Below the pieces are notes generated by a model that saw only the letters and a list, made by a program, of their open reading frames with translations, was not told where the DNA came from and did not search any database. A stretch of 64,000 nucleotides of DNA, from positions 64,001-128,000 of the forward strand of contig CAXXIN010000003.1 in assembly GCA_963665275.2 (NCBI GenBank). The letters run 5' to 3'. The translations under genes and the position numbers were made by a program. The DNA is from Negativicutes bacterium (lineage in GTDB: Bacteria; Bacillota; Negativicutes; UBA1444). Below are positions 1-17,683 of this stretch, piece by piece (the first letter of the stretch is position 1; each line of letters starts with the position of its first letter).

Positions 1-599
1 TGATTGCCAGGGAATGCAGTGCCATTTTGATTATAGTTGTTGTCAATGAAATCAGCCGCTGCAACCTTTGCCACTTCATTCACTTCGGCTGGAATGGTTG
101 TAAAAATTCCAAAGTCACGAGTGCCGCTGAAATAGTTGGCAAGAAAATTAAAGCTGCAAATGAAAGCTGCTTTCCCATCAATGACAATTCCTTTTTGGTG
201 CGTGACCTCATATACATTACTGGCGGGATGAGTTTGAATATTGCTTGATTGCTGAGTTAACGATTGCATGAAACTTGTAACAGTTTGTTGTTTTCCACTG
301 GTGCTTGCAAAGGAACTATAATTGTAAGTAATATCAACCTTTACGCCTCTTTGCGCTGCAGCTAGAATAGCTCCGTATAACGGGGTTGAATTATCGAATT
401 CATAAATGGTAATAGCAATAGTGCTTTGTGCTGAATTGATTTGATTAACCAAAAATGTTGTGCCATCATCTGGCTCAGTAATTAAAGTGTGCCCGTTGAT
501 AGGACCGATAGTGGCGCTGGCAATGGGAGTCGCGATTACCGAAATGGCAAAAATAAAGGTAATCAGAATAACCGCTTGCATTGCTTTCCTCATATTCAT
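1..599 (-). CDS. Secreted phospholipase D-family protein (runs off left edge)
   Basis: Own translation from ATG 599 after AAGGAG RBS: signal peptide MNMRKAMQAVILITFIFAIS..., HKD motif HQKGIVID; absent from ORF track because it is open at the window edge. Confidence 0.8.
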   Translation of the reverse strand, partial: MNMRKAMQAVILITFIFAISVIATPIASATIGPINGHTLITEPDDGTTFLVNQINSAQSTIAITIYEFDNSTPLYGAILAAAQRGVKVDITYNYSSFASTSGKQQTVTSFMQSLTQQSSNIQTHPASNVYEVTHQKGIVIDGKAAFICSFNFLANYFSGTRDFGIFTTIPAEVNEVAKVAAADFIDNNYNQNGTAFPGN

Positions 600-654
600 C
601 TCTCCTTCTTTTGCTTTACTTCAGTATGTCGACTAATCCACAGTTCATCAGGAT

Positions 655-765
655 AAGCCCTTCTTTGTCCATATTATACGGTTTCCGGTTTGTTTAAAAT
701 ACAAAAAGGAAAACTAGCAAGTTTTCGAGTAAAATTGGCGGGTTCCTATTGCCGATGGGACATCC
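655..765 (-). promoter_or_regulatory. Conserved ~110-bp promoter block, copy 1 (upstream of PLD gene)
   Basis: Similar to 15980-16090 (ttctttgtccat.ttatacgg...aaggaaaa...ttcgagtaaaattggc.gg...cgatggga); contains TATAAT on minus strand. Confidence 0.6.
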
Positions 766-942
766 CCCCTCTCGGCTCAATGGAATATGAAGCATATTGC
801 TTCACGCGGAGCCCAAACGATGATTTCTCTTAATTTCGTGCATTAGCGACGAAATGCACCTATGTCAGGCGATGCTTTTTGCTCGACATTCTCTTACAAG
901 GAAATCCAATTGGGGGAACTGCATTGCCCTTTCTAAACATCG

Positions 943-1686
943 CTAATTTTTCGTAAGTGGAAGCAATTTTGTAAGAGGCGTTAATAGATCTATTAATTCA
1001 TTATTTCCTGATTTTATTGCTAAATCCAGCGGTTTTTCCGCTATTAAATTGGCTTGATTTGGGTTTGCGCCATTTGCTAATAAAATTTTAACGCTTTCTA
1101 ATTTGCCTCGTTCACAGGCTTCTAGCAACGGAGTATTTCCCATACTATCTGCTTTATTTACGTTCGCACCTTTTTCGATTAATAATTTTAATATATCTAA
1201 ATCAATAAGTTTATCTGATCGTACTGCCCAAAAAGCAATAGTGACTCCATGAATATCATAAATTTTATGGTCTTTTAGAATTTCTCCATCGAAGCTTAAA
1301 TTGGGATCTGCTCCAGCATTAAGTAACATTTTAATTATATCCAAGCGTCTTTCACTAAATGCCCATGCAAGAGCGGACGGATAAGTACCGTTACCCTCTG
1401 CTTTGAAATTAACATCAACACCATTATCAATAAAACATTGAACAATAGCAGTGGATTTAGAGTTCCGTATGGCTCTGGTGAATGGTGCATCAGAGCGACT
1501 TTGTAAATAATTAGGATCGGCTCCCATAACAAAGGCTTGTTTTACTTGCTCCAAGTCATCATTTTTTACAGCGTTTAGAAGAAGTTGGCTGGCGGTTTCG
1601 TTGTAGTCTTTAGCTGAAACTGATGCTTGTCCTACTCCAATTCCAGCCAAACAAAGCATTATCATCACTAATAGCAGTTTTTTCAC
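943..1686 (-). CDS. Ankyrin-repeat protein with signal peptide
   Basis: Repeated ankyrin motifs (GADPN, GANVNKADSMGNTPLLEA, KPLDLA); hydrophobic N-terminus. Confidence 0.9.
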   Translation of the reverse strand: MKKLLLVMIMLCLAGIGVGQASVSAKDYNETASQLLLNAVKNDDLEQVKQAFVMGADPNYLQSRSDAPFTRAIRNSKSTAIVQCFIDNGVDVNFKAEGNGTYPSALAWAFSERRLDIIKMLLNAGADPNLSFDGEILKDHKIYDIHGVTIAFWAVRSDKLIDLDILKLLIEKGANVNKADSMGNTPLLEACERGKLESVKILLANGANPNQANLIAEKPLDLAIKSGNNELIDLLTPLTKLLPLTKN

Positions 1687-2269
1687 AAATACGACTCCTC
1701 TTTTTTACAGACTCCATTTTTACTACTTCTCTGTTAAAATTATTAAACCTTCATTAGTTGGTTACGTACTCCATTCCCAAATTATTCACACCAGCTGAGC
1801 CAAGCGAGCAAATATTACGGAATTATCTCACAGACCAAGGCTTCCTGGATGACAAAACAGCCTCTCATTCTCCTGAAAATTTTCTTATTCAGTTTTCTTG
1901 TTGTGCCCAACTGCCCCAATTTAATCTGGAAACACATAGGGCTTCCGCTGCAATTGCCGCCTCTGCAATGTCTTTCTCAGAAAAGGGGCAGTCCCGAATA
2001 TTATCTCAGCTTGGCATTTGCGCCCGCTCGGTTTAATTTGATAAAAAATCAGCGTTGGTTATGTTATCGGTGATCCGGTTAAGGCAGTGATAGAGAAATT
2101 ACTAACACCTGTGACGAGTTGCTGGATGAACTTGCGCTTAATTGACAGGCTCAAGTCAATTCGCTAGTATTGATGCATGGCTAAAGAATCATTTCACGAT
2201 CGCCATTTGGATCGCCAAACTTAAATGCGTTATCATTAATCACCCACAGAAAGGGTTGAAATCTTTAGT

Positions 2270-2920
2270 ATGATTAGTAATGAATCATATGGACCCTGTC
2301 CGAATACTCCCCACCCGATGCCAGGGCATCCTCGAGTATGTTACATAAAAAATGTCGTCAAAAACCCTAACATCATAATTGGTGACTATACCTATTATGA
2401 TGATCCGCAAAATCCCGAAGGATTTGAAAAAAACGTCTTGTATCACTACGATTTCATTGGAGACAAACTAATCATCGGGAAATTTTGTGCCATAGCCGCT
2501 GGCGTCAACTTTATCATGAACGGCGCCAATCATAAAATGGAGGCTTTGACAACATATCCATTTGGTATATTTGGCTCAGGATGGGAAGCAGGGCGACCTG
2601 CGTTGACCAACCTACCAATCAAAGGAGATACAGTAATCGGCAACGATTTTTGGCTTGGTTATGAATCAGTTGTGATACCAGGTGTCAGAATTGGCGATGG
2701 AGCAATTATCGCTGCAAAATCGATTGTAACAAAAGATGTGCCCCCATACACAATTGTTGGTGGCAATCCTGCCAAGATCATCAAACAAAGATTTGACGAT
2801 CAAGTTGTAGCAAAGTGATTAGCTGTAAAATGGTGGGATTGGTCTGTCGAAAAAATTACTCACAATATACCTTTCTTGGCTAGCAATGACATTGAACAAC
2901 TTATAAAAATGAAAGAATAG
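2270..2920 (+). pseudogene. vat: Vat/CatB-family xenobiotic acetyltransferase, copy 1, premature stop at 2816-2818
   Basis: Near-identical to 13610-14260; codon TTA(Leu) in copy 2 is TGA here and homology continues to TAG 2920. Confidence 0.8.
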
Positions 2921-3010
2921 GTTGACCAAACAATCAAAATAATCCCCCAATAGCAAAGGGCTCCTCGGACGAAAATCTGAAAAGCCTTTTACCTTCTATG
3001 CATATGGGCA

Positions 3011-3145
3011 TTATTTCAACAAAGATTCAGCCAAATTCATTTTATAAATCGATAAAGCTCAAACTTGGATTATCGGCATCATTGGAATTAACGCGAATAA
3101 GCATTTCATATTACCCTTCCCTCGTAATATTTTCTCAATGCATTG
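3011..3145 (-). pseudogene. Collapsed relic of the linear amide C-N hydrolase gene (start region fused to 3' end)
   Basis: 3095-3145 matches the RBS/start region at 15398-15450 (GGGAAGGGTAATATGAA.TG.TTATTC); 3011-3082 matches 14351-14481 with a deletion at ATTCAGC microhomology. Confidence 0.7.
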
Positions 3146-3328
3146 ACTCCGTCTCATATTCCAATAGCACATTGTTTCAACGGTATGGTTGTTCCTCTTT
3201 GGTTCAGTATTTTGGGTTTTATCTTGCCCGGTTGATCGCGTTCATGCTTTGGCGAGAAATGAAACAAACATAATAAATTCTTATGCATTTATATCGTACT
3301 TTAATTCTATCGCAGGAGGCTTCAAACA

Positions 3329-4021
3329 ATGATCGGAATTCTTGCTGGCATGGGACCGAAATCAACAGCCCCGTTTGTAGATAAAGTAGTTCAACTCTGT
3401 CAAGAAAAGTATGCCGCAAAATATGATATTGATTTTCCTCCAATGATGATCTATTCATGCCCTACTCCTTTTTATATAGACCGTCCATTGGATCATGAGG
3501 CTTTGGAATTTGCTATTATCAGCGGTGCCCAAAAAATCGCCTCCACAGGAGTTGATTTTATTGCTATTCCATGCAATACTGCTCATCGCTATTTTGAAAA
3601 CATTAAAAAATCCGTAGATACCCCCCTCTTGAACATGGTTGAGGAAGCGATAAAACACATCCCTCGCAACAAAGGGCGGGTTGCCCTCCTGTCCACTCCC
3701 TCAACCCTTGAGTCAGGAATCTATCAAGACGGACTAGCAACACTAGGGTGTCAGTTCGTATGGCAAGAATCTTGGCAACATCTGGTCAATCAAGTGATCT
3801 CGGGAGTGAAAGAACCTAACGGATTGGATCAAGCCCATTCAAATTGGCAGGAATTGCTTAACGAACTTGGAGAGCAAGCCGATTCACTGATATTAGCTTG
3901 CACCGATTTAAATATTGTTGCAGCTCATCACCCCACTGATATTCCAATAATTGATGCCGGCCTTTGCCTTGCAAGTGCAGTCGTGAATCGCTATTATGAA
4001 GGTCTTAAAAAAGAACAATAA
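3329..4021 (+). CDS. Aspartate/glutamate racemase family protein (RacX/YgeA-like)
   Basis: IGILAGMGPKST, PCNTAH and ILACTDL two-cysteine motifs; GGAGG RBS. Confidence 0.9.
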   Translation: MIGILAGMGPKSTAPFVDKVVQLCQEKYAAKYDIDFPPMMIYSCPTPFYIDRPLDHEALEFAIISGAQKIASTGVDFIAIPCNTAHRYFENIKKSVDTPLLNMVEEAIKHIPRNKGRVALLSTPSTLESGIYQDGLATLGCQFVWQESWQHLVNQVISGVKEPNGLDQAHSNWQELLNELGEQADSLILACTDLNIVAAHHPTDIPIIDAGLCLASAVVNRYYEGLKKEQ

Positions 4022-4096
4022 TGTTCGCGTTTTTAGAATGACTTTCTCAAATCGCTCTCACTGCCAACCATCATCAAGAATAATCTTATTCATTGC

Positions 4097-4196
4097 CACC
4101 CAGACTGGCACTCGCTCACCAAACTGATCACCAACACCCCAAAAACTCTATCATCCAACACAAAAAGCTTCCGACCACGAGTGGCTGGAAGCTTTT
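4097..4196. repeat. Junction repeat: paired TCACCAA arm-like sites (4112-4134) + palindrome A (4163-4196)
   Basis: Aligns over ~85 bp with 17333-17416, which abuts the selC 3' duplicate; cacccagactggcact is identical to 13520-13535. Confidence 0.8.
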
Positions 4197-4384
4197 AAAA
4201 TTTGAAATGAATCCAAGATGAGAATTCTTTTCTCTTCCGGAGAGTTTGCAGCTTCTGCATAACTATAATGACCACTTATCAAGAAAACAGTTAGCGCAAG
4301 AATAATAAAGTTTGAAAATATATCATTTGTCTTTTTGCCAGGTTGCCGCAACATTTTCTTCAACCTCTTCTTATAAACGCACAT
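4197..4384 (-). pseudogene. 5' fragment of a secreted/sensor protein cut off at palindrome A
   Basis: Signal-peptide-like stretch then EKRILILDSF, after which the frame runs into the repeat. Confidence 0.5.
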
Positions 4385-4456
4385 TCCATAACAACAACGA
4401 GTAAAAAGCTCAAAGGAATTATTCAGCTATAAATATTTTGCGGATTCGCAATTTGC

Positions 4457-4849
4457 CTATTTATTGATTAAGTCCGTGCCATATGAATTATCAATCGCGC
4501 AGAGCCATTTACCTTGTGCATCTTTCCTAAATACATAGGTTGCCCTTCTATCCATTGAATACTCCGAATCCTTTTTGTTGTTTGCTTCAAGAAGCGTTTG
4601 AGAAAGAACCAATGCGATATCTCCAGCTTCCAAAATTATCATTTCCCCTTGTGTTGGCACAATGCTATTATTGAAATATTTGGAAATTGCAATAAATGCT
4701 TTTTTGATTTCCTCTTTTCCACGCGCTATCATTTCAGGCTTTACAACCAAGATCGCATCATCAGTATAGTAATTCATCAATGTATCGAAGTCTTCTTGTT
4801 TGATTGCGCGGTCACATTTTTTGATAAACTCTTTTAGCTCGTGTTCCAT
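4457..4849 (-). CDS. NTF2-like / DUF4440 (YybH-like) protein
   Basis: [16 protein letters not shown]...GKEEIK...[16 protein letters not shown] pattern. Confidence 0.8.
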
Positions 4850-4981
4850 TCTATTTCCCTCCGATAATCAATTTTAGGCTATAGCCTGTGTTTCGGATAG
4901 GCACTGGACTTGAAAAAGTCGAGTCATGTTATTTTTTTGTCGTTGTCTATAACAAAAAAGCTAATGTGCCACGGCTACCAT

Positions 4982-5407
4982 TTACTCAATAAATCTTTTT
5001 TCACGCATACTCGATTCATTATTAAATTTTGCCATTCCAGTAATCATTTTACTATAGCCGAGTTTACAATAGAATTCTTCTTTTCCAGGGCTTGCATACA
5101 AAATGACATTGAATCCCTGCAAATTCCTGTGAAGCTCATCGACAATCAATTTGCCAAGTTTTTTACCTTGATATGCTGGCAATACAGCAATATCATAAAT
5201 TGCCGCTTGATAAGCACCGTCAGAAATCGCTCTACCAGCTCCCACAAGCAAAGCATTATCAAAGACAAATGCTACACAATAACTGTTTGTAAAAGCCTTT
5301 TTGATTAACGCGACAGTCCGGGTTGCTAATCCGGCTTCCTTCAATAAACAGCAAACTGTATCCCAATTAACATTCTCACAATTATTTTGAACACGGTATT
5401 GCATCAA
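4982..5407 (-). CDS. GNAT family N-acetyltransferase
   Basis: IYDIAVLPAYQGKKLGK acetyl-CoA motif; FYCKLGY. Confidence 0.9.
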   Translation of the reverse strand: MMQYRVQNNCENVNWDTVCCLLKEAGLATRTVALIKKAFTNSYCVAFVFDNALLVGAGRAISDGAYQAAIYDIAVLPAYQGKKLGKLIVDELHRNLQGFNVILYASPGKEEFYCKLGYSKMITGMAKFNNESSMREKRFIE

Positions 5408-5602
5408 ATTCTCTCCTTTACATATAGCGCCAGTAAATAGTTATTAACTCTTTACTGCAAAGGCACCTGCAATTTCTAATAATTGTATGTTGCCCCTCTG
5501 CCCCCTACTGATTCATCAACAATAAAAGCCAAGGCACCTTGTGATGAAGGCGCCTTGATTGGTTAATAATAATTTAAAAACTGTGAAGCTAAAAAAACGT
5601 CA

Positions 5603-5809
5603 TTAATTCTTGTTTAGAAGAATCAGCCCTATGGCGCAAAATACAACTCCCAGTGTTCTATTAAGAGCAAATCCCTCTTGGTAAAATAGAATACCTACTG
5701 GAATAAGCATAATGGCAAGCAGAATATTTGCAACTAAAGACCCTACACTTATATCCCATCCTGCCCTATACGCCATCAGCGTCCCAAACTCAAGTCCAAC
5801 AATTGCGAT
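5603..5809 (-). pseudogene. 3' fragment duplicate of the DMT/EamA-like gene 8463-8900
   Basis: 5518-5809 nearly identical to 8376-8669 including the downstream terminator; 5' half missing. Confidence 0.85.
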
Positions 5810-5829
5810 ACTTCTCGCGCACAAAACAT

Positions 5830-5860
5830 AAGGCTTCCAACCGCAAATGGCTGGAAGACT
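5830..5860. repeat. Palindrome A copy
   Basis: aaggcttccaaccgcaaatggctggaagact. Confidence 0.8.
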
Positions 5861-5928
5861 GTCCTCAATCTTAAACTGATGCAGTTCTCATATTAAAATC
5901 AAACAAATCAATTACCAACCTCACAACT

Positions 5929-6306: not shown

Positions 6307-6618
6307 AATACAATCCTCCCTTAATGTTTTGATCATTGACTTCGTTAGGTTTGATTGGATTCTTCTATGACAACTGTGCCTCAAAAGCAATAAGGGTATA
6401 TCACCTCCACAAGCTGTGCAATTTAATGAACAATTAGCTATTTTCAATTATGTACTTCTCCATTTATATGCAAATTTTCCTGCAATGAGAAGAATTTTTT
6501 GTTCAAATCGCATAATTTTCACCAATCCTATTCAGGCTCAATATAATTGCCTTTGAACACAACGTTCATTCCGCCATCATATGTACATCTTTCCGTCTGT
6601 TGCACGAGGATTTGATGC

Positions 6619-7406: not shown

Positions 7407-7508
7407 AACCTGTCACTGTCCAAGGAATATTGCCCTCGGACATAAGAAAGACTCTTCGGAATTACATCCAAAGAGCCTTTTTTTGAGCAGCGCGTACCAC
7501 AGTTCGAC

Positions 7509-8192
7509 CTATTCTTTCAGAGCCGCCCATTTTGATAAATCTTTTACACCATATCGTTTTTCAGCTGAGCTCATTTTGGCGAAGACCTCATTGAAATACT
7601 TCACATCTCCTTCTCGACCCTTTTCTCCCGTTATCTGAACCCAAGACTTAATAACCCAAACATCTCCTTCTTTAATCAATTCGACATTTGACATATAAGG
7701 GGCAAGATTCTTGCCAATGGTATTGGGTATGTTCATGTCGGCGGTGTATAGAATTAAACCCATAAGCGTGTTGCCCTTTTGGGAGACATGCTCCATCCCT
7801 TGGAGAGTATAGCTATTGATAGAAGACAATCTGGTCGAAAGCTCGGATTCTGAAATACTTCTCATCCCCAAATGCAATTTTTTCATGCTTTGGAAGTCTT
7901 TTGTATTGATTGCAGAAAAGAATGGAAGGAGTCCACGAACCATCTCTTTTTCCGCTGGTTGGATTAAAGTAGTGTTTCGGGGTGATGATGTTTGCTCGGA
8001 AACTTGATTTTGGGATGTTATTTTTGATGGTATACTGCTGTTTTCTGAGGACGATAACAACATTTTGGGTTGACCGAGACCATTTGTAGTTCCGATTGAA
8101 GGTTTTAATATTAGAAACGAGAGTGTGCCTATAGTTATGGCAAGTATAGCTATAATACCAATTATCACTTTTCTTCCTGTAATCGATATCAT
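7509..8192 (-). CDS. Hypothetical membrane-anchored protein
   Basis: N-terminal TM, Ser-rich linker, globular C-terminal domain; GGAGG RBS. Confidence 0.7.
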   Translation of the reverse strand: MISITGRKVIIGIIAILAITIGTLSFLILKPSIGTTNGLGQPKMLLSSSENSSIPSKITSQNQVSEQTSSPRNTTLIQPAEKEMVRGLLPFFSAINTKDFQSMKKLHLGMRSISESELSTRLSSINSYTLQGMEHVSQKGNTLMGLILYTADMNIPNTIGKNLAPYMSNVELIKEGDVWVIKSWVQITGEKGREGDVKYFNEVFAKMSSAEKRYGVKDLSKWAALKE

Positions 8193-8322: not shown

Positions 8323-8462
8323 ATTTCCAAACTGTACCCTTTACTTCTGCACCGCACGCCCCAAACATCATCATTAACAATAAAAAGCCAAGGCACCTTG
8401 TGATGAAGGTGCCTTGGTTGGTTAATAATAATTTAAGAAACTGTGAAACTAAAAAAATATCA

Positions 8463-8900: not shown

Positions 8901-9077
8901 CTCATTGACTTTATTCTAGTGTCGAAACCTCAAAGGTCGTATGAAATTACTGCATCGAGCAGAACTCCTACAGATAATTATTTTACCACACTAAATGTAT
9001 CCTGTAGATACGAACACCTTGCCTTTATGCCCCAAACCCACTTGCCCCTCTGTCCCAAACAATAAATCCATCCACCA

Positions 9078-10955
9078 ATCGAGTAGGAGGGGGCGGCGAG
9101 CCCCCGACCTCTCACACCACCGGACATGCGGGTCCGCATCCGGCGGTTCCCAAGGATTGACGAAGTTTTCCATAGTGTGCAAGCAAACTCAACAGCCCTT
9201 GACGTTCCCAATAGGTAACGTCGAGGGCATTATTTGTGTTGCGGGCCATGGCCCAGGGTCCCTTGCTGGATTTGGCCATCATCCACGCCGCCCACTCCGG
9301 TACGCCCAGCGCCCGGAGGTTTCGGAAACGTGTCCACGCCCTCTTCCATTGTTTCCAGAGGCACATGCGCAGTCGCCGCCGTAACCATTGGTCCAGTTCC
9401 CCGCAATGCTTCTTGGCCGATGCCACATGGAAATATCCAATCCAGCCCCGCAGATACTGGTTAACCTGCCGGATTCTTTCTTCCATCGCCACGGACCATG
9501 TTCGGTTCGTGAGTTGTCGGATTCTCTCCTTGCAACGCTCCAGCGTCTTTGGCGCTAACCGGATGGTTCCCGCTTTGTCGTTCAAGAAACTAAAGCCAAG
9601 AAACTTTCGCTTCCACGGTCGGTCTACTGCACTCTTCTCCCGGTTTACCTTGAGTTTGAGCTTGCCTTCCACAAACCGGACCACCGATTCCATCACCCGA
9701 ACTCCTGCCCGCCTGCTTCGCACGAACAAGTTGCAGTCGTCCGCGTAGCGGACGAACCGATGCCCGCGCCGCGCCAGTTCCCGGTCCAAGTCATCGAGCA
9801 GAATGTTCGACAATAGCGGACTCAACGGACCGCCCTGCGGCGTTCCCTCTGTTGTCCTACTTACTACGCCACATTCCATGACTCCGGCGCTTAAGTAACT
9901 GCGGATGAGTTTCAGAACTCGTTTGTCTCCCACTCTTCGCGCCACCCGCGCCATCAACATGTCGTGGTTGACCCGGTCGAAGAATTTCTCTAGGTCCATG
10001 TCCACGACAAACCGATAGCCTTCCCGGATGTGTTCCTGCGCCCGCCGGATTGCGTCATGCGACCGTTTCCCCGGCCGGAAGCCGTAGCTTTCCGGGCTGA
10101 AGTAAGGATCGAATATCTGGGTCAGTGTCTGCAGAAGGGCCTGCTGGATCAGGCGATCCAATACGGTTGGGATACCCAGCGCCCGCGTCCCGCCTCCGGG
10201 TTTTGGAATGTCCACCCGTTTCACGGGTTGCGGCCGGTAAGTTCCCGTTCGGAGCTGTTCTTTAGTTGTTTCCCAGTTGGTCTGGAGATATCCCGCCAGT
10301 GTGGCGGTATCCATCCCGTCGACGCCGGGAGCTCCTCCGTTTTGTTTCACCCGCTGGTAGGCGCGTTTCATGTTTTCCCGCTCCAGCGTTTTCTCCAGCA
10401 GTTCACCAGGGTCTTCGCGAGAGGGCAGGTCCACTTGTGCCGGTGATGGGCTCAGCGCTCCGGCATACTTTTGCGGCTTCACCGCTACTTTTTGCCGTAA
10501 GCCTTCTTCTGAAGTTGGCTGCTGTAATTGCTCATCACGCGAACGCATAGTTTCCCTCTCTTTCTTTGGGTTCGGCCCTTCCGGCGCGGCGTCCCGCTCT
10601 CCGTACTATGGCCTCGGCTGACTCCTGCGATTTCAGCGCCGCCTCACGGCGGCGGTTGCCGACTCAGTCGGCGTGACCGCAGGCCTCCCCGGATAAGAAC
10701 GTCATCTTTCCACTCATGCACCTGCCCAAGTTTACTGCTTCAGCCCTTGGCGGCTTCGGACTTCGTCTTCTCGTGCAGACTCGTCCGGCTGAAACAGCCT
10801 CAAATTGGGTTCGTATACCTCAGGTCGAGCATTTGCCTCCAGCTTCCTTCAGATTCCGTCTCGCGACGGACACCCTTGCTCTTGGCTAACGGTAGGCGCT
10901 CGCCAGCCCCCGCTCGGGACTTTCACCCTATAGACGACGCCCATGCCGGGCGTAC
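9078..10955 (-). mobile_element. Group II intron, bacterial class C (IIC)
   Basis: 5' GTACGCCCGGCATGGGCG; DV GAACCGCCGGATGCGGACCCGCATGTCCGGTGGTGTG (CGC triad); 3' ...CCTACTCGAT; inserted just after a stem-loop and T-tract. Confidence 0.93.
9112..10548 (-). CDS. ltrA: Group II intron reverse transcriptase/maturase (no endonuclease domain)
   Basis: GAPGVDG, GFRPG, DLEKFFD, GTPQGGPLSPLL, RYADD, thumb RGWIGYF. Confidence 0.95.
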   Translation of the reverse strand: MRSRDEQLQQPTSEEGLRQKVAVKPQKYAGALSPSPAQVDLPSREDPGELLEKTLERENMKRAYQRVKQNGGAPGVDGMDTATLAGYLQTNWETTKEQLRTGTYRPQPVKRVDIPKPGGGTRALGIPTVLDRLIQQALLQTLTQIFDPYFSPESYGFRPGKRSHDAIRRAQEHIREGYRFVVDMDLEKFFDRVNHDMLMARVARRVGDKRVLKLIRSYLSAGVMECGVVSRTTEGTPQGGPLSPLLSNILLDDLDRELARRGHRFVRYADDCNLFVRSRRAGVRVMESVVRFVEGKLKLKVNREKSAVDRPWKRKFLGFSFLNDKAGTIRLAPKTLERCKERIRQLTNRTWSVAMEERIRQVNQYLRGWIGYFHVASAKKHCGELDQWLRRRLRMCLWKQWKRAWTRFRNLRALGVPEWAAWMMAKSSKGPWAMARNTNNALDVTYWERQGLLSLLAHYGKLRQSLGTAGCGPACPVV

Positions 10956-10960
10956 ACACA

Positions 10961-10994
10961 AAAAGCTTCCAACCACGAATGGCTGGAAGCTTTT
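10961..10994. repeat. Palindrome A copy (terminator-like; intron target)
   Basis: aaaagcttccaaccacgaatggctggaagctttt. Confidence 0.85.
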
Positions 10995-11018
10995 ATATTT
11001 TGATCAATTCTGGTGATT

Positions 11019-11954: not shown

Positions 11955-12025
11955 TTTTCCCCCTCCTGCATTGTCAATGAAACATCTTCATTCCGCCTAA
12001 TAATTTATTACTGGCAAAAAGAAAC

Positions 12026-12418: not shown

Positions 12419-12561
12419 TCTAATCCCTCCCTGATATTTTTGTTGACGTTAATTACTTCTGTGTGTATCATAATATCAAAGTTATAGTCATACATATAAT
12501 ACTAAATTACTTTATGATTCATAGGAAAAACTTATGTTAAGAAATATGGTGGGTAACGTTT

Positions 12562-13443
12562 ATGGATATAAAGCAGCTTAAATATTTTAGAGCCATTGTT
12601 GCAGAAGGCAATATTACCGGAGCAGCCACACGTTTATTTATGACGCAACCATCGCTAAGTCAACAACTGCATCTTCTTGAAAACGAGCTGGGTGTGAAGC
12701 TGGTTCAGAGAGGCAGCAGAAGGATTACCGTTACTGAAGCAGGTCGTTTATTAAATGACAGAGCTGGACAAATTTTAGACTTACTAAACGCCACCGCTTT
12801 GGAAGTAAAAGAGTTTCACGAAGGATATAAAGGCACATTGTCTATAGGAACAATTGCATCTTCCGGCGTGACACTATTGCCAAGCCTGATTCGGGACTAT
12901 CATCAACAATATCCTAATATCAATTTTCAATTATTGGAAGGTGATACCCCACGAATTTTGGATTTGTTGAAAAACGGTATAATTGAAATAGGCATTGTCC
13001 GAGCCGCTTTTGATGCAGAGCTTTATGATTGGGTGGACTTACCAACTGAACCAATGATTGCAGCCACTTCCCAAAAATGGAGTGGCGGAGATCACTCCCA
13101 ATATATTTCCATCAAGGATCTTGCAAACAAGCCATTACTGCTACATCGCAGCAATGAAACAATGATAATAGAATGCTGTCAGCGCGCTGGATTCCAACCC
13201 AACATTATCTGCAAGGGTGATGATGTCCGGTCTTTATTAGTTCTTGCCAATGAAGCGATTGGGCTTGCGATTGTGCCAAAATCCGCATTAGGTTTAGTCC
13301 CAGGCAATAATATAAAATATAGAGAGATTATTGATTCACCTTTAGAAATAAAGAAAGCAGCAGTCTGGTTGCGACAAAGATTCCTTTCCATTGCTGCAAA
13401 ACATTTTATTGATATGCTGCTATTACTCAAATCGAATTCTTAA
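12562..13443 (+). CDS. LysR family transcriptional regulator
   Basis: GNITGAATRLFMTQPSLSQQLHLLENELG HTH; divergent from TerB-like/AEC genes. Confidence 0.95.
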   Translation: MDIKQLKYFRAIVAEGNITGAATRLFMTQPSLSQQLHLLENELGVKLVQRGSRRITVTEAGRLLNDRAGQILDLLNATALEVKEFHEGYKGTLSIGTIASSGVTLLPSLIRDYHQQYPNINFQLLEGDTPRILDLLKNGIIEIGIVRAAFDAELYDWVDLPTEPMIAATSQKWSGGDHSQYISIKDLANKPLLLHRSNETMIIECCQRAGFQPNIICKGDDVRSLLVLANEAIGLAIVPKSALGLVPGNNIKYREIIDSPLEIKKAAVWLRQRFLSIAAKHFIDMLLLLKSNS

Positions 13444-13609
13444 ACAAAGAAAATGTCTACTCGTCCTTCCCCTGCCCCTTCCTCCCCAAATATCATCAGT
13501 AAATACCGTCATTTACCGGCACCCAGACTGGCACTTGATCACCAACCCAAGTCAAAACCTTCAATGCATTATTCACCAATCGTTCGCAGAAAGGATTGAG
13601 AAGTTTAGT

Positions 13610-14260
13610 ATGAGTAGTAATCAATCATATGGACCCTGTCCAAAGACTCCCCACCCGATGCCAGGGCATCCCCGAGTATGCTACATAAAGAATGTCGTCA
13701 AAAACCCTAATATCATAATTGGTGACTATACCTATTATGATGATCCGGAAAATCCCGAAGAATTCGAAAACAATGTCTTATACCACTACGACTTCATAGG
13801 CGACAAATTAATCATCGGAAAGTTTTGTGCCATAGCCACTGGTGTCAACTTCATTATGAACGGCGCCAATCACCAAATGGATGCTTTGACAACGTATCCA
13901 TTTGGTATATTTGGCTCAGGATGGGAAGTAGGACAACCTGCGTTGGCCGACCTACCAATCAAAGGGGATACAGTAATCGGCAACGATGTTTGGATTGGCT
14001 ACCAATCAGTTGTGATGCCCGGTGTCAAGATTGGCGACGGAGCAATTATCGCTGCAAAATCGATCGTAACAAAAGATGTTCCCCCATACACAATTGTTGG
14101 CGGCAATCCTGCCAAGTTCATCAAACAAAGGTTTGACGATCAAGTTGTTGCAAAGTTATTAGCTATCAAATGGTGGGATTGGTCTGTCGAAAAAATTACT
14201 CACAATATACCTTTCTTGGTTAGCAATGACATTGAACAACTTATGAAAATAGAAGAATAG
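13610..14260 (+). CDS. vat: Vat/CatB-family (streptogramin A-type) O-acetyltransferase, intact copy
   Basis: IIGDYTYYDD, IGKFCAIA, MNGANH, hexapeptide repeats, KWWDW; start after AAAGGA RBS, matching copy 1. Confidence 0.88.
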   Translation: MSSNQSYGPCPKTPHPMPGHPRVCYIKNVVKNPNIIIGDYTYYDDPENPEEFENNVLYHYDFIGDKLIIGKFCAIATGVNFIMNGANHQMDALTTYPFGIFGSGWEVGQPALADLPIKGDTVIGNDVWIGYQSVVMPGVKIGDGAIIAAKSIVTKDVPPYTIVGGNPAKFIKQRFDDQVVAKLLAIKWWDWSVEKITHNIPFLVSNDIEQLMKIEE

Positions 14261-14350
14261 GTTAAGCAAACAATCAAAATAATCCCCCAACACAAAAGGC
14301 TCCTCGGACGAAAATCCGAAGAGCCTTTTATCAACTATGCATATTGATTA

Positions 14351-15412
14351 CTATTTCAACAAATATTCAGCAGGACTATGAAATTCTCCTCCAGCCAGTT
14401 TCATCCGCACCACAGGAGCAGATTCAGCCAAATTCAATTTCTTTAAATCGATAGAGCGCAAACTCGGATTGTCTGCATCATAAAAATATATGACTTTGTT
14501 TTTGTGATCTCTTATGATCGTCCACAACGTGTAGTTATACGAACCCAAACCAGCGTATGCACTGGCTTCGACTCTTGCCTCCCCACGAACCACAGCCACC
14601 TTATTCATAATGGCGGTTGCGGTGGCAATCGCGGAGGGTAAACTCTGCGGTTCGTTCACGTATTTGTTAATCAAATACGCTTGCACGAAACGACGATCTT
14701 CATATATCACCACATCGTCATTAGACATCGCATTGGTATAATTGTTATATTTTTTCAAATTATTAATGTGCCAGTCATACGGGGGATCGTTTGTAACTAC
14801 TTTAATCGCGGAAATATCGTGGATTTTCATTTGACCATCGACAAATTCGATAACAATGCTCTCGCCGGTCTCGTCGCCGATGATTAAATGCTGCGGTGGA
14901 ATCATTTTGAGTTCTCCCGCATAATTGCCAGTAATGATTGTTTTTTGCAGCGCCTGTCGCAATTCAGCGATGTTAGAAAAATTCCCCAATACCCACTCAC
15001 TTGCGTATGTCAAAGGAATCACTTCACGGCTAGGATAACGTGCGGGCTCTGGATATTCTGCCCCTTCCATCCACTGCATCGCCACTGAGAGGCCCTTTTC
15101 ATTCAAACCATCACTAAAAACATCTCGTCCAAGCAGGTTAACGCCAACAAAACCATATTTTGTTTTCTTGTCGATTAAAATCCCTTCGGGATATTTCATC
15201 ATGGTCACGACGTGACCGGCAGGAACAACAACAATATCGGAATTCATCTCAATATCAAAATCCATATTGCGACCACTTACTACGTAGTTCCGCGAGTTTA
15301 GAAATACGCTTGTACAAGCTTCAGCCGGGAGCGCGGCGCCCCAGAAACTCAGAGTTAACGCAACCAGGCTATAAATGAAAAAATCCCGACGCTTGCTGAA
15401 TAAACAATTCAT
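14351..15412 (-). CDS. Linear amide C-N hydrolase (choloylglycine hydrolase/penicillin V acylase family), secreted
   Basis: Signal peptide then AEA-CTS (N-terminal nucleophile Cys), GRNMDF, DGLNEKGL, VTNDP. Confidence 0.9.
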   Translation of the reverse strand: MNCLFSKRRDFFIYSLVALTLSFWGAALPAEACTSVFLNSRNYVVSGRNMDFDIEMNSDIVVVPAGHVVTMMKYPEGILIDKKTKYGFVGVNLLGRDVFSDGLNEKGLSVAMQWMEGAEYPEPARYPSREVIPLTYASEWVLGNFSNIAELRQALQKTIITGNYAGELKMIPPQHLIIGDETGESIVIEFVDGQMKIHDISAIKVVTNDPPYDWHINNLKKYNNYTNAMSNDDVVIYEDRRFVQAYLINKYVNEPQSLPSAIATATAIMNKVAVVRGEARVEASAYAGLGSYNYTLWTIIRDHKNKVIYFYDADNPSLRSIDLKKLNLAESAPVVRMKLAGGEFHSPAEYLLK

Positions 15413-15452
15413 ATTACCCTTCCCCCGCAACATTGCCTCAATGCAGATTATT

Positions 15453-15926
15453 CTACTGGAGTACATTCCATTTTGTCTCAACAGCCTTTGTCACTTCGTT
15501 ATTATTGTCCTTTAGCATATTCCGCTGCGCGTTTAGTGACGTCACTAATAGCCCCTTATCCAGCATAGACGATAATTGATCTTGGTTCATTTGCAGCATC
15601 TGCTGTCGGGTGTATGTCATCAGTTGCTCTTTCGTTTCCTGCTTCGTCTGGGTTTTAAGAAAGCTTTGACCCATCGTCTTCACCTGCTCAGGAGTCATCA
15701 CCACCATCATTTTATCGATTGCCCTAATGTACATCATTAAAACCATCTGATCTTTAAGCGCCGTTATCGCATCTTTCTCATTCGTAATCATCTGTTCGCC
15801 TTTAATCAAATCATTCATTGTTTTCTCACCGCTTGTCATGACCGGAGCCGCCAATACTGTTCCCATACTTGTAACCACCATCAGGATAACAAGAACAACT
15901 GTGAATCGCTTTAACATAAGTAACAC
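15453..15926 (-). CDS. Secreted Met/Gln-rich hypothetical protein
   Basis: Signal peptide; upstream of and co-oriented with the hydrolase. Confidence 0.65.
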   Translation of the reverse strand: MLLMLKRFTVVLVILMVVTSMGTVLAAPVMTSGEKTMNDLIKGEQMITNEKDAITALKDQMVLMMYIRAIDKMMVVMTPEQVKTMGQSFLKTQTKQETKEQLMTYTRQQMLQMNQDQLSSMLDKGLLVTSLNAQRNMLKDNNNEVTKAVETKWNVLQ

Positions 15927-15979
15927 CCCTTATTTATTATTGTATTATTGATTTACGCTCTTTACCAAACGTTTTGGCA

Positions 15980-16090
15980 AAGCCTTTCTTTGTCCATGTT
16001 ATACGGTATCCGCTTAATTGAAAAGACATAAAGGAAAATCCGCAGGCTTTCGAGTAAAATTGGCAGGCTCGTCTGGACGATGGGAAAGCC
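15980..16090 (-). promoter_or_regulatory. Conserved ~110-bp promoter block, copy 2
   Basis: Similar to 655-765. Confidence 0.6.
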
Positions 16091-16113
16091 TAAAACCATT
16101 CTTCTCCCAACAG

Positions 16114-16150
16114 AAAAAGGCTTCCACCCACGAATGGCTGGAAGTCTTTT
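16114..16150. repeat. Palindrome A copy
   Basis: aaaaaggcttccacccacgaatggctggaagtctttt. Confidence 0.85.
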
Positions 16151-16201
16151 ATATTTTAATCTTATTCAACTGCGTTAGTATTTCATATTCTGCCTGACGA
16201 T

Positions 16202-16657
16202 TTATTTTATCCTTCTAACCACTTCGTTATACAAGATTTTTGCAAGATCGCCATCGAGTGCAGCCCAATGTGCATCGGCAGGAAGGGTCTCTTTTAGGAT
16301 AACCTTATCGTTTTTATCGAAAAAGCTGAATTCTGTGGCTCTGAATGTCCGATCATTGATTTTCATTTCCTGGACAATCAAAAGGTACTCCACGTCAACA
16401 AAAGGATTCACGCCGCCTTTGCTCCACGCTGCGGCTCGAGTCTTTTTCGAATTTTCATCAAATGTTGTTTTTATCTTGTAATTGGCGATGTCTTTATCCT
16501 TATTATATACAACTGTCGCCACGTCAAGGTTGAGTGTCGTCCCGCCTAGTTCGCCGATTTTAACATATTGGGGCTGACTACAGCCCGTCATAACTAACGC
16601 AACAATAATTAGAACAAACAACGAAACCAAAGAACACGCCTTTTTCATTTGTGACAC
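16202..16657 (-). CDS. Lipoprotein (surface-adhesin E-like)
   Basis: Lipobox VMTG-C; beta-rich body. Confidence 0.7.
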   Translation of the reverse strand: MSQMKKACSLVSLFVLIIVALVMTGCSQPQYVKIGELGGTTLNLDVATVVYNKDKDIANYKIKTTFDENSKKTRAAAWSKGGVNPFVDVEYLLIVQEMKINDRTFRATEFSFFDKNDKVILKETLPADAHWAALDGDLAKILYNEVVRRIK

Positions 16658-16688
16658 CCCTTACCCTTCGATTGTTGAAACAGATACT

Positions 16689-16712
16689 CCTCCAGCCGCA
16701 AATGGTTGAAGG
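16689..16712. repeat. Palindrome A, degenerate copy
   Basis: cctccagccgcaaatggttgaagg; same loop as the 5830 copy. Confidence 0.65.
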
Positions 16713-16740
16713 TCCTTGTTATTTTCACGACCCAAGATGT

Positions 16741-17247
16741 TCATTGCCGTATTAAGGCATAAATAAAAGAATCTGATACTATCCCATTTTTGTATATGCT
16801 ATTTTTCAACTTACCCTCCAATTGGAAGCCCGCCTTCTCAAGCACTCTAATAGACCCTGCATTATAGGAAAATATTTCTGCAAAAATCCTGACCACATCA
16901 TAAGATTGAAAGATTTCTCGGCACATTCGATTTACGGCTTCTGTCATAATTCCTTTGCCCCAGAAGTCTTCACCCAGCCAATACCCTATCTCGCAACATT
17001 TGCAGTGCACATCATCTTTGATAAAACACCCTATAACTCCAGCCGCTTCTTGATTTACAACAATGGCTCGAATGTATTGATTCTTTTCTTCGTTGTTCAT
17101 AGACTCATTTATAAAGCTTCTGGCATCCTCAACCGTATATGGATGCGGAAATATATTACGCAAGTTATTCGCTATATTATTGTTATTGGCATATTTCGCT
17201 ATGCTTATCGCATCAGAACTTTGCAGTTCTCTTAATTCAAAATCCAT
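16741..17247 (-). CDS. GNAT acetyltransferase, RimJ/RimL-type
   Basis: EIGYWLGEDFWGKGIMTEA, NAGSIRVLEKAGF. Confidence 0.92.
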   Translation of the reverse strand: MDFELRELQSSDAISIAKYANNNNIANNLRNIFPHPYTVEDARSFINESMNNEEKNQYIRAIVVNQEAAGVIGCFIKDDVHCKCCEIGYWLGEDFWGKGIMTEAVNRMCREIFQSYDVVRIFAEIFSYNAGSIRVLEKAGFQLEGKLKNSIYKNGIVSDSFIYALIRQ

Positions 17248-17332
17248 GCATTCGCCCTTCGCTTCTTTCGGAAAGTTTATGAAAGCATTTTATCATATCT
17301 GCGTTATCCGTCTCTACAATAGTCCTTTACAA

Positions 17333-17416
17333 TCGCTCACCAAATCGATCGCCAAAAACCTTAAACTGCATCAACAAATACAAAAGGCTTTCAGCCACGA
17401 ATGGCTGGAAGCCCTT
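17333..17416. repeat. Junction repeat: paired TC(A/G)CCAA arm-like sites + palindrome A, abutting the selC 3' duplicate
   Basis: tcgctcaccaaatcgatcgccaaa...caaaaggctttcagccacgaatggctggaagccctt. Confidence 0.85.
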
Positions 17417-17426
17417 ATATTTATTA

Positions 17427-17670: not shown

Positions 17671-17683
17671 GAATGCAGCATTC

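Follow-up and report, generated by a model that had tools for sequence, protein, structure and literature searches.

A selC-linked gene array in a Negativicutes genome punctuated by a terminator-plus-repeat module

What are the co-oriented palindromes that punctuate the low-GC gene array next to the tRNA-Sec gene (selC) of this Negativicutes bacterium, and how did the genes between them come to be stacked there? A preliminary description of the window (the whole 64-kb stretch of DNA analyzed) proposed an integron-like array built by serial capture of small units at selC. In the window and in two related loci (L003 and L007), arrays have a GC content of 0.37 to 0.41, compared with 0.51 to 0.53 for the core side.

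Palindromes and other features of the window

The 24-nt palindrome pattern, with up to 3 mismatches, has 5 matches in the 64 kb (4168, 5834, 10966, 16121, and 17388), all five on the plus strand; the number expected by chance is 0.00 (100 shuffles of the window). The start coordinates given previously take in 4 to 7 flanking bases. The single orientation reported for six copies is confirmed, as are five strong copies in 1-17426, but the sixth is degenerate: it belongs to a repeat family (D5) yet scores poorly with R1, a covariance model of the hairpin and its flanks that was run over the whole window with filters off. As claimed, the 40 kb of core genes lack the palindrome, since the R1 scan of 23.7 to 64 kb yields no match with an E value below 1 (the top ones are at 59442, E 2.7, and 35885, E 3). 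The features are as follows.

1..17426, minus strand (most genes): cargo array of low GC content, truncated where the window begins
2167..2276, plus: left-arm-only module (TCGCCAtttgGATCGCCA), immediately upstream of vat-1
2886..2999, plus: type B module after the truncated vat-1 (R1 E 0.024; D1, D8, D13, D15), within a segmental duplicate of the region at 13.5-15.5 kb
4090..4206, plus: type A module with complete left arm (TCACCAAactGATCACCAA; R1 99 bits, E 1e-17)
5490..5570, plus: type C module, preceded by TTGCCCCTCTGCCCCC
5755..5872, plus: type A module, hairpin 5834-5857 (R1 65.9 bits; D2, D9), of whose left arm a duplicated EamA fragment (5524-5818) leaves only ~15 nt
7447..7481, plus: diverged type B hairpin (D7), 3' of gene 7509-8192
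8350..8432, plus: type C module, stem CCAAGGCACCTT/AAGGTGCCTTGG, 3' of the EamA gene
9083..10959, minus: group II intron (ends approximate; GC 0.58) with RT/maturase ORF 9112-10548
10956..11004, plus: type A hairpin and right spacer (R1 54 bits, model positions 66-114 only)
13513..13581, plus: module piece, left arm alone (single ATCACCAA, GGCACCCAGACTGGCAC; D16), immediately upstream of vat-2
14226..14338, plus: type B module (R1 E 0.005) between vat-2 and the hydrolase gene
16044..16159, plus: type A module, hairpin 16121-16144 (R1 71.7 bits, E 2e-12), 3' of minus-strand gene 16202-16657
16689..16712, plus: degenerate type A hairpin (D5; E 0.72; fold -11 kcal/mol), 3' of GNAT gene 16741-17247
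17319..17426, plus: selC-proximal junction module, type A (R1 100.3 bits, E 5e-18)
17427..17492, minus: exact 66-nt copy of the 3' portion of tRNA-Sec (D6; 100% identity to 23574-23639)
17493..23573, minus: separate decayed low-GC 6.1-kb insertion flanked by the 66-nt repeats
23574..23671, minus: intact tRNA-Sec gene (selC)

Repeat families D1, D2, D8, D9, D13, and D15 represent segmental duplications. These duplications, the 6.1-kb element, the group II intron, and the other hairpin types with the same flanks had been missed in the preliminary description.

Anatomy of the junction module

The palindrome is the middle part of a larger module of ~110 to 130 nt, in which paired GATCRCCAA repeats are followed by a ~32-nt spacer, the hairpin, and a 15-nt spacer. 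The selC-proximal copy shows this order with repeats TCACCAAatcGATCGCCAA and hairpin 17388-17411 and is 90% identical to the L003 module that adjoins an intact tRNA-Sec gene. Once variants with other stems and the same flanks are counted, the window holds ~10 to 11 module-like sites. The stem types (A, B, C, and others) differ, with pairing, the outer flanks AAAAGG/CCTTTT, and the adjacent bases retained. The type B module at 14226 has type A flanks (CCAACACAAAAGG ... CCTTTTAT) around a different stem (GGCTCCTCGGA/TCCGAAGAGCC), and its hairpin recurs in another locus, L009. On the minus strand, the group II intron is inserted 6 to 10 nt past the hairpin; it displaces the left arm of the 10956..11004 copy, which continues at ~8990-9082 with TGCCCC repeats. 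Such repeats often accompany the left arm of the module.

The paired 12-nt-period pattern TCRCCANNNNNRTCRCCA is found exactly at 2200, 4116, and 17337 and a single unit at 13538, in line with the recurrences noted earlier near 2198, 4112, and 13536. With one exact match (25972) and four one-mismatch matches in the core, its 8 matches compare with 0.68 expected. ATCRCCAA alone (14 observed, 6.7 expected) was counted as not enriched. A second repeat type described at 5490 and 9042 is there in two exact copies of TTGCCCCTCTG but is not significant alone (0.88 expected; 26 of 100 shuffles reach 2). The repeat pairs keep a fixed distance from the hairpin in the window and in 6 of 12 loci, which is the layout of arm-type sites.

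The hairpins carry a U-tract on the minus strand, and of 15 copies, 12 fold more stably as minus-strand RNA than as plus-strand RNA. On that strand, the hairpin is best read as a predicted rho-independent terminator for selC and the cassette genes; therefore, the notion that the palindrome is a recombination site is unproven.

The same module at selC in related genomes

Among 185,579 species genomes, exact matches to the hairpin comprise 10 copies in three Negativicutes MAGs, with 3 to 4 per MAG, and a further two, restricted to the hairpin and located in high-GC contigs, that seem to be chance matches. The relatives are all MAG contigs, covered for ~2 kb to the left and right of every exact hairpin match. 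Exact copies thus lie almost only in selC-type arrays of Negativicutes MAGs and not in the genome-wide REP-like scatter that had been named as the refuting case. These sequence comparisons support reading the repeats as selC-linked junction modules.

In L003 and L007, which come from two related Negativicutes MAGs, an intact tRNA-Sec gene begins 15 nt past the hairpin. Among 11 nonredundant strong type A modules in relatives, 2 adjoin an intact tRNA gene, 3 adjoin tRNA 3'-end fragments (L003a and L012 with 10 nt each, L010c with at least 23 nt), and 6 adjoin neither. The type B module of L009 adjoins a diverged ~66-nt tRNA fragment, module 1 of L012 retains 7 nt of the tRNA 3' end, and 4 of the 5 strong modules in the window have no tRNA piece. 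The right-hand borders vary: the tRNA portion retained is 66, at least 23, 10, 7, or 0 nt long, or the break comes at the stem itself. All modules of a contig share one orientation, also relative to the tRNA gene or its fragments.

Module identity across the four genomes is 74 to 95%, whereas the window array and the loci of relatives have just two cargo genes in common, namely, vat and one encoding a 157-aa ORF. Between the 157-aa gene with its module and the tRNA-fragment module, the window encodes a probable lipoprotein and a GNAT, and L010 encodes a different GNAT and two Nif11 proteins. The vat gene is paired with a type A hairpin in L003 and with a type B hairpin in the window. Units measure 0.45 to 2.1 kb; L012 packs 4 modules into 2.1 kb, with units down to ~0.45-0.65 kb. 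Across these genomes, the cargo between conserved modules differs, but the right-hand borders do not coincide at one precise point.

Cargo genes and search for a recombinase

The array units consist of one or two genes, each ending in the same ~110-nt terminator-plus-repeat module. The products include PLD-like, ankyrin, truncated Vat (vat-1), racemase, SnoaL-like, GNAT, and EamA proteins and three unknowns, as well as an AEC transporter, LysR, Vat (vat-2), a choloylglycine-type hydrolase, a probable lipoprotein, another GNAT, and two further unknowns. The cargo listed previously is recovered, namely, two GNATs, two Vat-type hexapeptide transferases (one truncated), and ankyrin, SnoaL/NTF2-like, EamA, and choloylglycine-type hydrolase proteins; the lipoprotein is only probable and matches no family.

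No integrase or recombinase gene is found among the 26 window ORFs scanned (Pfam, then NCBIfam), including the 17.4-kb array, and no integrase among 25 ORFs of the relatives' loci (Pfam) or 19 unknown ORFs (PHROGs). The same scans detect no integrase remnant within any array, so that the cognate integrase to be looked for did not emerge from the window or the loci of relatives. An Rfam scan finds nothing at the modules.

The 6.1-kb element between the array and selC

The 6.1-kb element sits between the cargo array and the true selC. It encodes an HNH protein, an ORC/Cdc6-like ATPase, an AAA ATPase fragment, and a 79-aa C-terminal integrase remnant (23272-23508, plus strand; Pfam E 3.4e-4, below the cut-off), the sole integrase trace. 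The 66-nt tRNA duplicate was produced by this later insertion, and 17427..17492 is the distal att repeat of the element. As stated earlier, the copy nearest selC abuts this duplicate: its hairpin ends 15 nt before it.

Origin of the array

The leading explanation, with about an even chance of being correct, is that miniature elements lacking an integrase accreted one after another at selC by site-specific insertion, with an integrase supplied in trans and later blurring by deletion and duplication. The region would be a selC-anchored pile of small integrated units, each bounded on its selC-distal side by an att-site-like module that corresponds to the usual downstream neighbor of selC in this group of bacteria. 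Read along the minus strand, the module comprises the tRNA 3' end, the 15-nt spacer, the GC-rich hairpin with its U-tract (the selC terminator), ~32 nt, and two GATCRCCAA repeats 12 nt apart, often with TGCCCC repeats. A tyrosine integrase provided by a phage or island located elsewhere could recombine circular DNA bearing the module, with the crossover falling somewhere from the hairpin to the last tRNA bases; this enzyme, the position of its crossover, and any mobility today are what we infer. Every insertion would set a new module beside selC and displace older units outward, and the modules would therefore be co-oriented at all junctions. The hairpins would then serve as terminators for captured genes, the units bringing their own promoters. 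The borders would afterward have been blurred as segments were deleted or duplicated, modules recombined homologously with one another, and a single group II intron inserted.

The idea of serial capture at selC is thus partly borne out by the module-selC link, the internal tRNA pieces, and the differing cargo, although neither an integrase nor a precise common breakpoint was found. One fixed crossover without later deletions does not predict right borders that differ from copy to copy, and the hairpins are fully explained by a terminator role, which weighs against accretion. The vat gene is joined to differing hairpins and some breakpoints fall inside EamA; therefore, the array also owes its form to illegitimate or homologous recombination. 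Both alternatives offered in the preliminary description, cassette accretion in trans and stacked decayed ends, still lead.

A dedicated integron-like cassette platform of Negativicutes appears unlikely. Here, the hairpin would be the recombination site, acting as a folded strand or through inverted 9-bp arms around an asymmetric 6-bp center, the selC terminator would serve as attI, and a specialized recombinase encoded beyond the stretch seen would excise and reinsert single-gene cassettes. Its recombinase is neither known nor seen, inspection of the module sequences reveals no RYYYAAC/GTTRRRY cores, the flanks being AAAAGG/CCTTTT, and the Rfam result is empty. The small one- or two-gene units, such as those in L012, and the lack of integrase remnants in the arrays would fit it, as would stems that vary while their pairing and flanks are kept. 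This recalls attC sites, in which structure is conserved and sequence variable. The center bases (ACGAAT or GCAAAT) are asymmetric and conserved in 13 of 15 aligned copies, and the pairing of vat with differing hairpins suggests that a breakpoint lies where the hairpin begins on its left side. However, part of the invariance seen in the 3' arm is an artifact of the search pattern. The group II intron directly past one hairpin also speaks for such a platform; as far as the respective sources go, IIC introns prefer terminators and other inverted repeats (PMC1702495), and one lineage prefers attC sites (PMC3001079). Hairpins with U-tracts and a stabler minus-strand fold are ordinary terminators, the borders are imprecise, and tRNA fragments at the junctions indicate classical tRNA-site integration.

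It is rather improbable that this is an ordinary horizontally acquired island with terminators related by descent and no site-specific system today, its repeats arising by segmental duplication and, after DNA uptake, through homologous recombination at shared stretches of ~110 nt. Such processes have clearly left traces: vat, the type B hairpin, and the hydrolase gene are duplicated (13.5-15.5 kb versus 2.2-3.3 kb), as are the EamA 3' part and the type C module; adjacent Nif11 units in L010 (n = 2) resemble a tandem duplication; vat-1 is truncated and hydrolase remnants persist; borders vary, some lying within genes; and the hairpins behave as terminators. What this leaves unexplained is the same module after intact selC in two other genomes, tRNA 3' fragments of differing length and sequence at internal junctions, and a noncoding module that flanks dozens of unrelated genes in four genomes and is better conserved than the cargo. 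Colonization of the island by a REP/MITE-like small mobile repeat, moved, for example, by a RAYT or IS200/IS605-type transposase, is already disfavored and highly improbable. The short imperfect intergenic palindrome with its conserved mismatch and loop resembles such elements, but the 40-kb core has 0 copies, the 3 to 4 exact copies per related MAG are co-oriented and all within selC-type arrays, no HUH/Y1 transposase is encoded among the scanned ORFs, and the conserved unit takes in the selC spacer and tRNA end and is thus not a self-contained repeat.

Comparison with known systems

The accretion favored above is closest to that of CIMEs, integrase-less elements that keep att sites and accrete in tandem, as far as these and the ICESt1/ICESt3-type elements are covered in PMC5704250. 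Shared traits are the lack of integration genes, att-like direct repeats with a tRNA end, one target gene, one stacking orientation, and the newest insertions lying nearest the tRNA gene (here, the 6.1-kb element with its exact 66-nt repeats). Relative to the CIMEs outlined there, the units described here are much smaller (one or two genes), much more numerous, and free of integrase remnants; many junctions have no tRNA piece, and it is the terminator with the repeats downstream of it, not the tRNA end, that dominates the repeated block. In tRNA-gene islands, successive integrations move older elements inward and leave partial tRNAs, according to the portion of 10.1101/2020.12.28.424599 dealing with them. 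The Prochlorococcus tycheposon islands of that account are likewise tRNA anchored and variable, with serial integration, partial tRNAs, and degenerate remnants. However, tycheposons as depicted there span several kilobases and have their own recombinase and often replication genes, which the present arrays lack, and the host lineage and target tRNA differ.

The term "integron-like" holds by analogy only. Integrons and CALINs (clusters of attC sites without an integrase) share the co-oriented array, in which most units are a single gene and every unit has an imperfect palindrome after it, the typical cargo (GNATs, Vat-type acetyltransferase, toxin-antitoxin parts, and small unknowns), and a group II intron beside one palindrome. 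In contrast, the selC array has no intI, attC-type cores, or attI, is anchored at a tRNA gene with tRNA fragments at some junctions, has palindromes with U-tracts that are predicted terminators, and carries genes in both orientations that seem to be served by promoters of their own. Xer-dependent modules and IMEX arrays, such as the dif modules of Acinetobacter plasmids and the CTX/TLC arrays at dif, are small modules bounded by short imperfect palindromic sites, with the recombinase encoded elsewhere and one chromosomal pile-up site. The site described here is unlike the 11+6+11 dif layout, the array is at selC and not at the terminus, and the modules are direct rather than alternately inverted. 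REP/BIME palindromes are similarly short, GC-rich, imperfect, and located after genes, whereas those described here are confined to selC arrays, in a single orientation and within a longer conserved nonpalindromic module.

Module structure and distribution in the window

The low-GC array of cargo genes at positions 1 to 17426 contains a recurrent block of ~110 to 130 nt, here called the module. The consensus of 15 aligned copies (4 from the window and 11 from relatives) reads, from left to right, GATCACCAAcccGATCGCCAAA, about 32 nt that end in CCAACACAAAAGG, a hairpin, and then CCCTTATATTTACTA. This right spacer is followed in several copies by the 3' end of tRNA-Sec (TGGCGGGAGC...), and C-rich TGCCCC repeats are often found farther to the left. 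A stem of 10 to 12 bp forms the hairpin; its centre is CGAA or CAAA, an A.C mismatch recurs in it, and an A-run and a T-run lie on either side. The paired repeats of the left arm match their pattern exactly at 2200, 4116, and 17337. When 1-mismatch matches are counted, the window contains 8, versus 0.68 expected; one exact and four 1-mismatch matches in the core, the remainder of the window from ~23.7 kb on, look like chance occurrences.

The preliminary description listed six co-oriented copies of the palindrome. Five are strong: a 24-nt pattern with up to 3 mismatches finds 5 copies in the window (0.00 expected), all on the + strand. The sixth, at 16689, is degenerate, belongs to the repeat family D5, and scores an E value of 0.72 with R1, the covariance model of the hairpin and its flanks. 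With filters off, R1 yields five matches with E <1e-8, every one within 1-17426 and on the + strand, and no match with E <1 in the core (23.7 to 64 kb). Thus, within the window, which is what this profile scan covers, the palindrome is not scattered after core genes in both orientations, as a REP or terminator family would be. ATCRCCAA, the TGCCCC pair pattern, and TTGCCCCTCTG, the second type of site in the preliminary description (5490 and 9042), are not enriched when tested alone.

Weaker full-length R1 matches at 14226-14338 and 2886-2999 represent type B, with the same flanks and a different stem (GGCTCCTCGGA/TCCGAAGAGCC); CCAACACAAAAGG is exact at 14287. Left-arm-only pieces lie directly upstream of both Vat-type acetyltransferase genes, vat-1 and vat-2. 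If these are counted, the 17.4-kb array has ~10 to 11 module-like sites, which gives about one site for every one to three genes. Rfam has no family for the module at either gathering or E-value thresholds. The other variants are as follows.

Further module variants in the array
~5490-5570 and 8350-8432: type C stem with related flanks
7447-7481: diverged type B (repeat family D7)

The selC gene and the 6.1-kb element

The GC content is ~0.39 to 0.40 over 1-23240 and ~0.51 beyond, with the boundary at about 23.2 kb; one 1.9-kb stretch of 0.58 is the exception inside the low-GC part.

tRNA-Sec sequences in the window
23574-23671, - strand: tRNA-Sec gene (selC)
17427-17492: exact 66-nt copy of the tRNA-Sec 3' part (repeat family D6)

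Exact 66-nt direct repeats of the tRNA end flank the low-GC DNA at 17493-23573, indicating that this 6.1-kb piece is a separate insertion; the array starts immediately past its distal tRNA repeat. The element has defence-like genes, for an HNH protein, an ORC/Cdc6-like P-loop ATPase, and a Spaf_1101/TrlF-type AAA ATPase fragment, together with unknowns. A tyrosine integrase has left a C-terminal remnant of 79 aa adjoining selC (23272-23508; Pfam E value of 3.4e-4, below the cut-off), whose high-GC DNA is cut off by the low-GC DNA of the element. TGGCACA repeats are visible by eye close to both ends of the element, without statistical support. ATGGCACA, which by eye resembled arm repeats of the element, occurs 55 times versus 60.6 expected and stays an impression. 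A tRNA-like T-arm seen by eye (GGGATCGAACC...) at ~17636-17680, near the distal end, was called by neither ARAGORN nor Rfam.

Related loci in other genomes

A scan of 185,579 species genomes for exact matches to the type A pattern gave 12 loci, and the genome of the window was not among them. Ten of the 12 represent 10 distinct matches on five contigs of three metagenome-assembled genomes (MAGs) labelled Veillonellaceae or Negativicutes; contigs with related arrays include CAZFSM010000017.1 (85 kb), CAZXCC010000067.1, JBGSKE010000233.1, and JBGSKE010000104.1. The other two, L004 and L008, are hairpin-only single matches on high-GC contigs, treated as chance and excluded from the counts, and three loci (L002, L006, and L011) were omitted from the counts because they overlap L003, L005, and L010. 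The relatives were viewed as ~2 kb on either side of the exact matches on MAG contigs, and part of the constancy of their 3' arm is imposed by the pattern searched for. The 10 exact copies are clustered and co-oriented in low-GC selC-type arrays, as judged by an exact type A scan of incomplete MAGs. In 6 of the 12 loci, paired repeat and hairpin are spaced as in the window, and module identity is 74 to 95%.

In L003 and L007, an intact tRNA-Sec gene starts 15 nt past the hairpin; in this group, selC is thus normally flanked downstream by the module. Among the 11 nonredundant strong type A modules of the relatives, 2 adjoin an intact tRNA, 3 adjoin tRNA 3' fragments of 10 nt (L003a and L012) or at least 23 nt (L010c), and 6 adjoin neither. 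The unit in L003 is bounded by one module with 10 nt of the tRNA and another with the full tRNA, module 1 of L012 keeps 7 nt, and a type B module in L009, with its own GATCACCA pair, adjoins a diverged ~66-nt tRNA fragment. On each contig the modules share one orientation, also with respect to the tRNA and its fragments. The GC content is 0.37 to 0.41 in the arrays, compared to 0.53 on the opposite side of selC in L003 and L007.

The units between modules span 0.45 to 2.1 kb, and L012 carries 4 modules within 2.1 kb. Their cargo includes HxlR with an FMN reductase, Nif11 proteins, GNATs, ThiF-type and Dabb proteins, an RTX-repeat protein, vat, and small unknowns, of which only vat (91% nucleotide identity) and a 157-aa open reading frame (ORF) are shared with the window. 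From the 157-aa gene and its module to the module with the tRNA fragment, the window encodes a probable lipoprotein and a GNAT, whereas L010 encodes a different GNAT and two Nif11 proteins. Content thus changes between conserved modules.

Two adjacent Nif11-type units at 1881-2765 of L010 have near-identical upstream flanks and modules, and the pair looks like a tandem duplication of an entire 691-bp unit, module included. To the right of one type A hairpin, ~60 nt are 86% identical between the window (5858-5915) and L005 (1730-1787); beyond them the genes differ, with an unknown 172-aa ORF in the window and a ThiF-type gene in L005. This stretch may be a second conserved junction arm or the relic of a gene 3' end.

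Properties of the hairpin and rearrangements around it

Each copy of the hairpin directly follows the 3' end of a minus-strand gene, a tRNA, or a tRNA fragment. The minus-strand RNA folds at -11 to -29 kcal/mol, with CYTTTTGTGTT directly after every copy, and is the more stable strand in 12 of the 15 aligned copies, since a plus-strand A.C mismatch is a minus-strand G.U pair. The copies have the make-up of an intrinsic terminator, in that a U-tract comes after a GC-rich stem-loop on the transcribed strand and the whole lies at gene 3' ends. From its sequence, the hairpin is best read as a predicted rho-independent terminator for selC and the minus-strand genes.

One of these hairpins, at 10966, adjoins a group II intron.

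Group II intron in the array
~9083-10959 (ends approximate), - strand: group II intron with Rfam matches to D1-D4 and D5-D6; RT/maturase ORF at 9112-10548

The RT/maturase scores 429.8 bits with the NCBIfam model group_II_RT_mat and has no HNH domain by Pfam; the intron has a GC content of 0.58 against a background of 0.40. It is inserted 6 to 10 nt past the stem, at the U-tract, and the left arm of the module resumes beyond it. According to PMC1702495, class IIC introns are typically located behind a terminator motif or another inverted repeat, so that the insertion site of this candidate class C intron fits a terminator and a recombination hairpin alike.

The right-hand borders of the modules vary, falling at the stem, after 12 to 15 nt of spacer, or 7 to 66 nt into the tRNA. 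Behind the gene vat, the hairpin is of type A in L003 and of type B in the window, with a diverged, alignable left arm, and one type A module is fused to the middle of a duplicated EamA fragment. A block of vat, a type B module, and a hydrolase gene is duplicated, with the second copy decaying. Both vat genes encode Vat-family streptogramin A O-acetyltransferases: vat-2 (13600-14260) passes the NCBIfam Vat cut-off (328.9 versus 300), and vat-1 (2270-2818) is truncated to 182 aa (282 bits), with a decayed copy of the choloylglycine-type hydrolase gene at ~3005-3300. Taken together, these variations show that deletion and duplication, and probably homologous exchange between modules, shaped the array.

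Search for a recombinase

Pfam, NCBIfam, and PHROGs searches of the array and the relatives' loci detected no cognate integrase of the kind that the preliminary description pictured as acting in trans, and no other recombinase. Apart from the 79-aa remnant, Phage_integrase has no match in the 26 ORFs of the array and the 6.1-kb element (Pfam and NCBIfam) or in the 29 core ORFs; the array runs past the left edge of the window, and the search covers the part inside it. The only other recombinase-type matches in the window are an IS256-type transposase (34343-35569) and an rve-type IS (from 63216). No relaxase or transfer genes were found in the arrays. Distant-mode blastn searches of phage and plasmid collections with the module and the adjoining tRNA end matched the tRNA-Sec part only, with no attP-like partner.

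Possible origins of the array

Serial site-specific integration is consistent with the tRNA fragments at internal junctions, the constant orientation, the arm-like pairs of repeats, and the restriction of the modules to selC. It is about an even call whether the array arose by serial accretion, at or just behind selC, of miniature elements that lack an integrase and use one in trans. An incoming circle would carry a module that ends beside the tRNA, each insertion would displace the earlier units outward, and the crossover, if at one point, would fall somewhere from the hairpin to the first bases of the tRNA end. Of the known systems, accretion of cis-mobilizable elements (CIMEs) is the closest in its working, and the array shows both testable features of the class. 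CIMEs are defined as keeping att sites while missing integration and transfer genes (PMC5704250), a description that the arrays match if the modules, as we infer, are functional att sites. The same source describes accretion for CIMEs, with new insertions next to the tRNA, and a similar model is outlined for tRNA-anchored islands of Prochlorococcus (10.1101/2020.12.28.424599). As in other elements that use tRNA sites, direct repeats with the 3' end of the target tRNA flank units here (the 6.1-kb element, L003, L009, L010c, and L012), whereas 4 of the 5 strong modules inside the window array lack it. Compared with known accretion, three things are unusual: the units are of cassette size, they are numerous, and they contain no integrase remnants at all. 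This makes the decay of full elements a poor explanation and points to units that never had an integrase and relied on one in trans.

The term "integron-like" from the preliminary description applies by analogy. Integrons carry intI next to an array with attI, and no intI is found in the ORFs scanned here. Their attC sites have inverse cores of RYYYAAC...GTTRRRY, whereas the modules have AAAAGG/CCTTTT flanks and, by inspection of the 15 aligned copies, no GTTRRRY; Rfam returned no match at the modules. Integron cassettes are co-oriented, mostly promoterless single genes that end in the recombination site, and on this point the units give a mixed picture: most consist of a single gene followed by a module, 4 to 5 genes are on the opposite strand, and a promoter-like site with a TG (17316-17287) precedes at least the GNAT gene at 17247. 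A dedicated integron-like platform, with the hairpin as its recombination site, is unlikely. To our knowledge, integrons are essentially absent from the phylum. A further reading can be offered tentatively, as a possibility on the doubtful side: an undescribed gene-cassette platform of Negativicutes at the selC terminator, in which a trans-encoded recombinase would capture, excise, and reshuffle single-gene cassettes of 0.5 to 2 kb through modules of ~110 to 130 nt, each made of a structure-conserved hairpin with an asymmetric centre and conserved arms with paired GATCRCCAA repeats. It is quite unlikely that the array is an ordinary island whose related terminators spread through duplication and homologous exchange, processes that have left traces here. 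A REP- or MITE-type repeat is very improbable: REP/BIME families are dispersed in both orientations after core genes, whereas the modules are confined to one orientation in the array, have no core match with E <1, and occur as 10 exact copies, all co-oriented in selC-type arrays.

If the modules were live recombination sites, selC in this group would be a capture platform without a recombinase of its own, assembling small adaptive genes such as those for Vat-type streptogramin acetyltransferase, GNATs, transporters, and toxin-antitoxin parts. The known ways in which tRNA-linked islands grow would then include, besides the stacking of whole elements, the addition of units as small as a cassette, and Firmicutes-type bacteria would have something that works like an integron. 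Even on a conservative reading, the array documents serial integration at one tRNA gene with unusual clarity. This record is conserved across several species, and its ~110-nt signature is well defined and searchable. No relevant description of selC-anchored arrays or cassettes in Negativicutes came up in a search of titles and abstracts.

Other features of the window

A conserved noncoding stretch of ~110 nt with a TATAAT-like box is found at 655-765 and 15980-16090 and at ~330-440 of L010. On the minus strand it precedes genes that differ between copies, namely a PLD-like gene and, in two genomes, the 157-aa unknown; it may act as a promoter or operator common to them. A riboswitch-like reading was set aside, as the consensus fold reaches only -4.5 kcal/mol and Rfam gives no match.

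A second patch of lower GC content (0.36 to 0.46) at 58000-64000 contains small genes of cassette-like kinds, encoding a 4HBT thioesterase, a GNAT, a dGTP diphosphohydrolase-like domain, DUF218, and MBOAT, together with the rve-type IS. The best match to the module model there (59442; E value of 2.7) is not significant. A cobalamin riboswitch (28222-28404) is found upstream of a cbiK/cbiM/cbiQ/cbiO cobalt-uptake cluster that neighbours selC. A c-di-GMP-I riboswitch (35737-35824) lies beside the IS256-family transposase gene, upstream of a DMSO-reductase-type operon.
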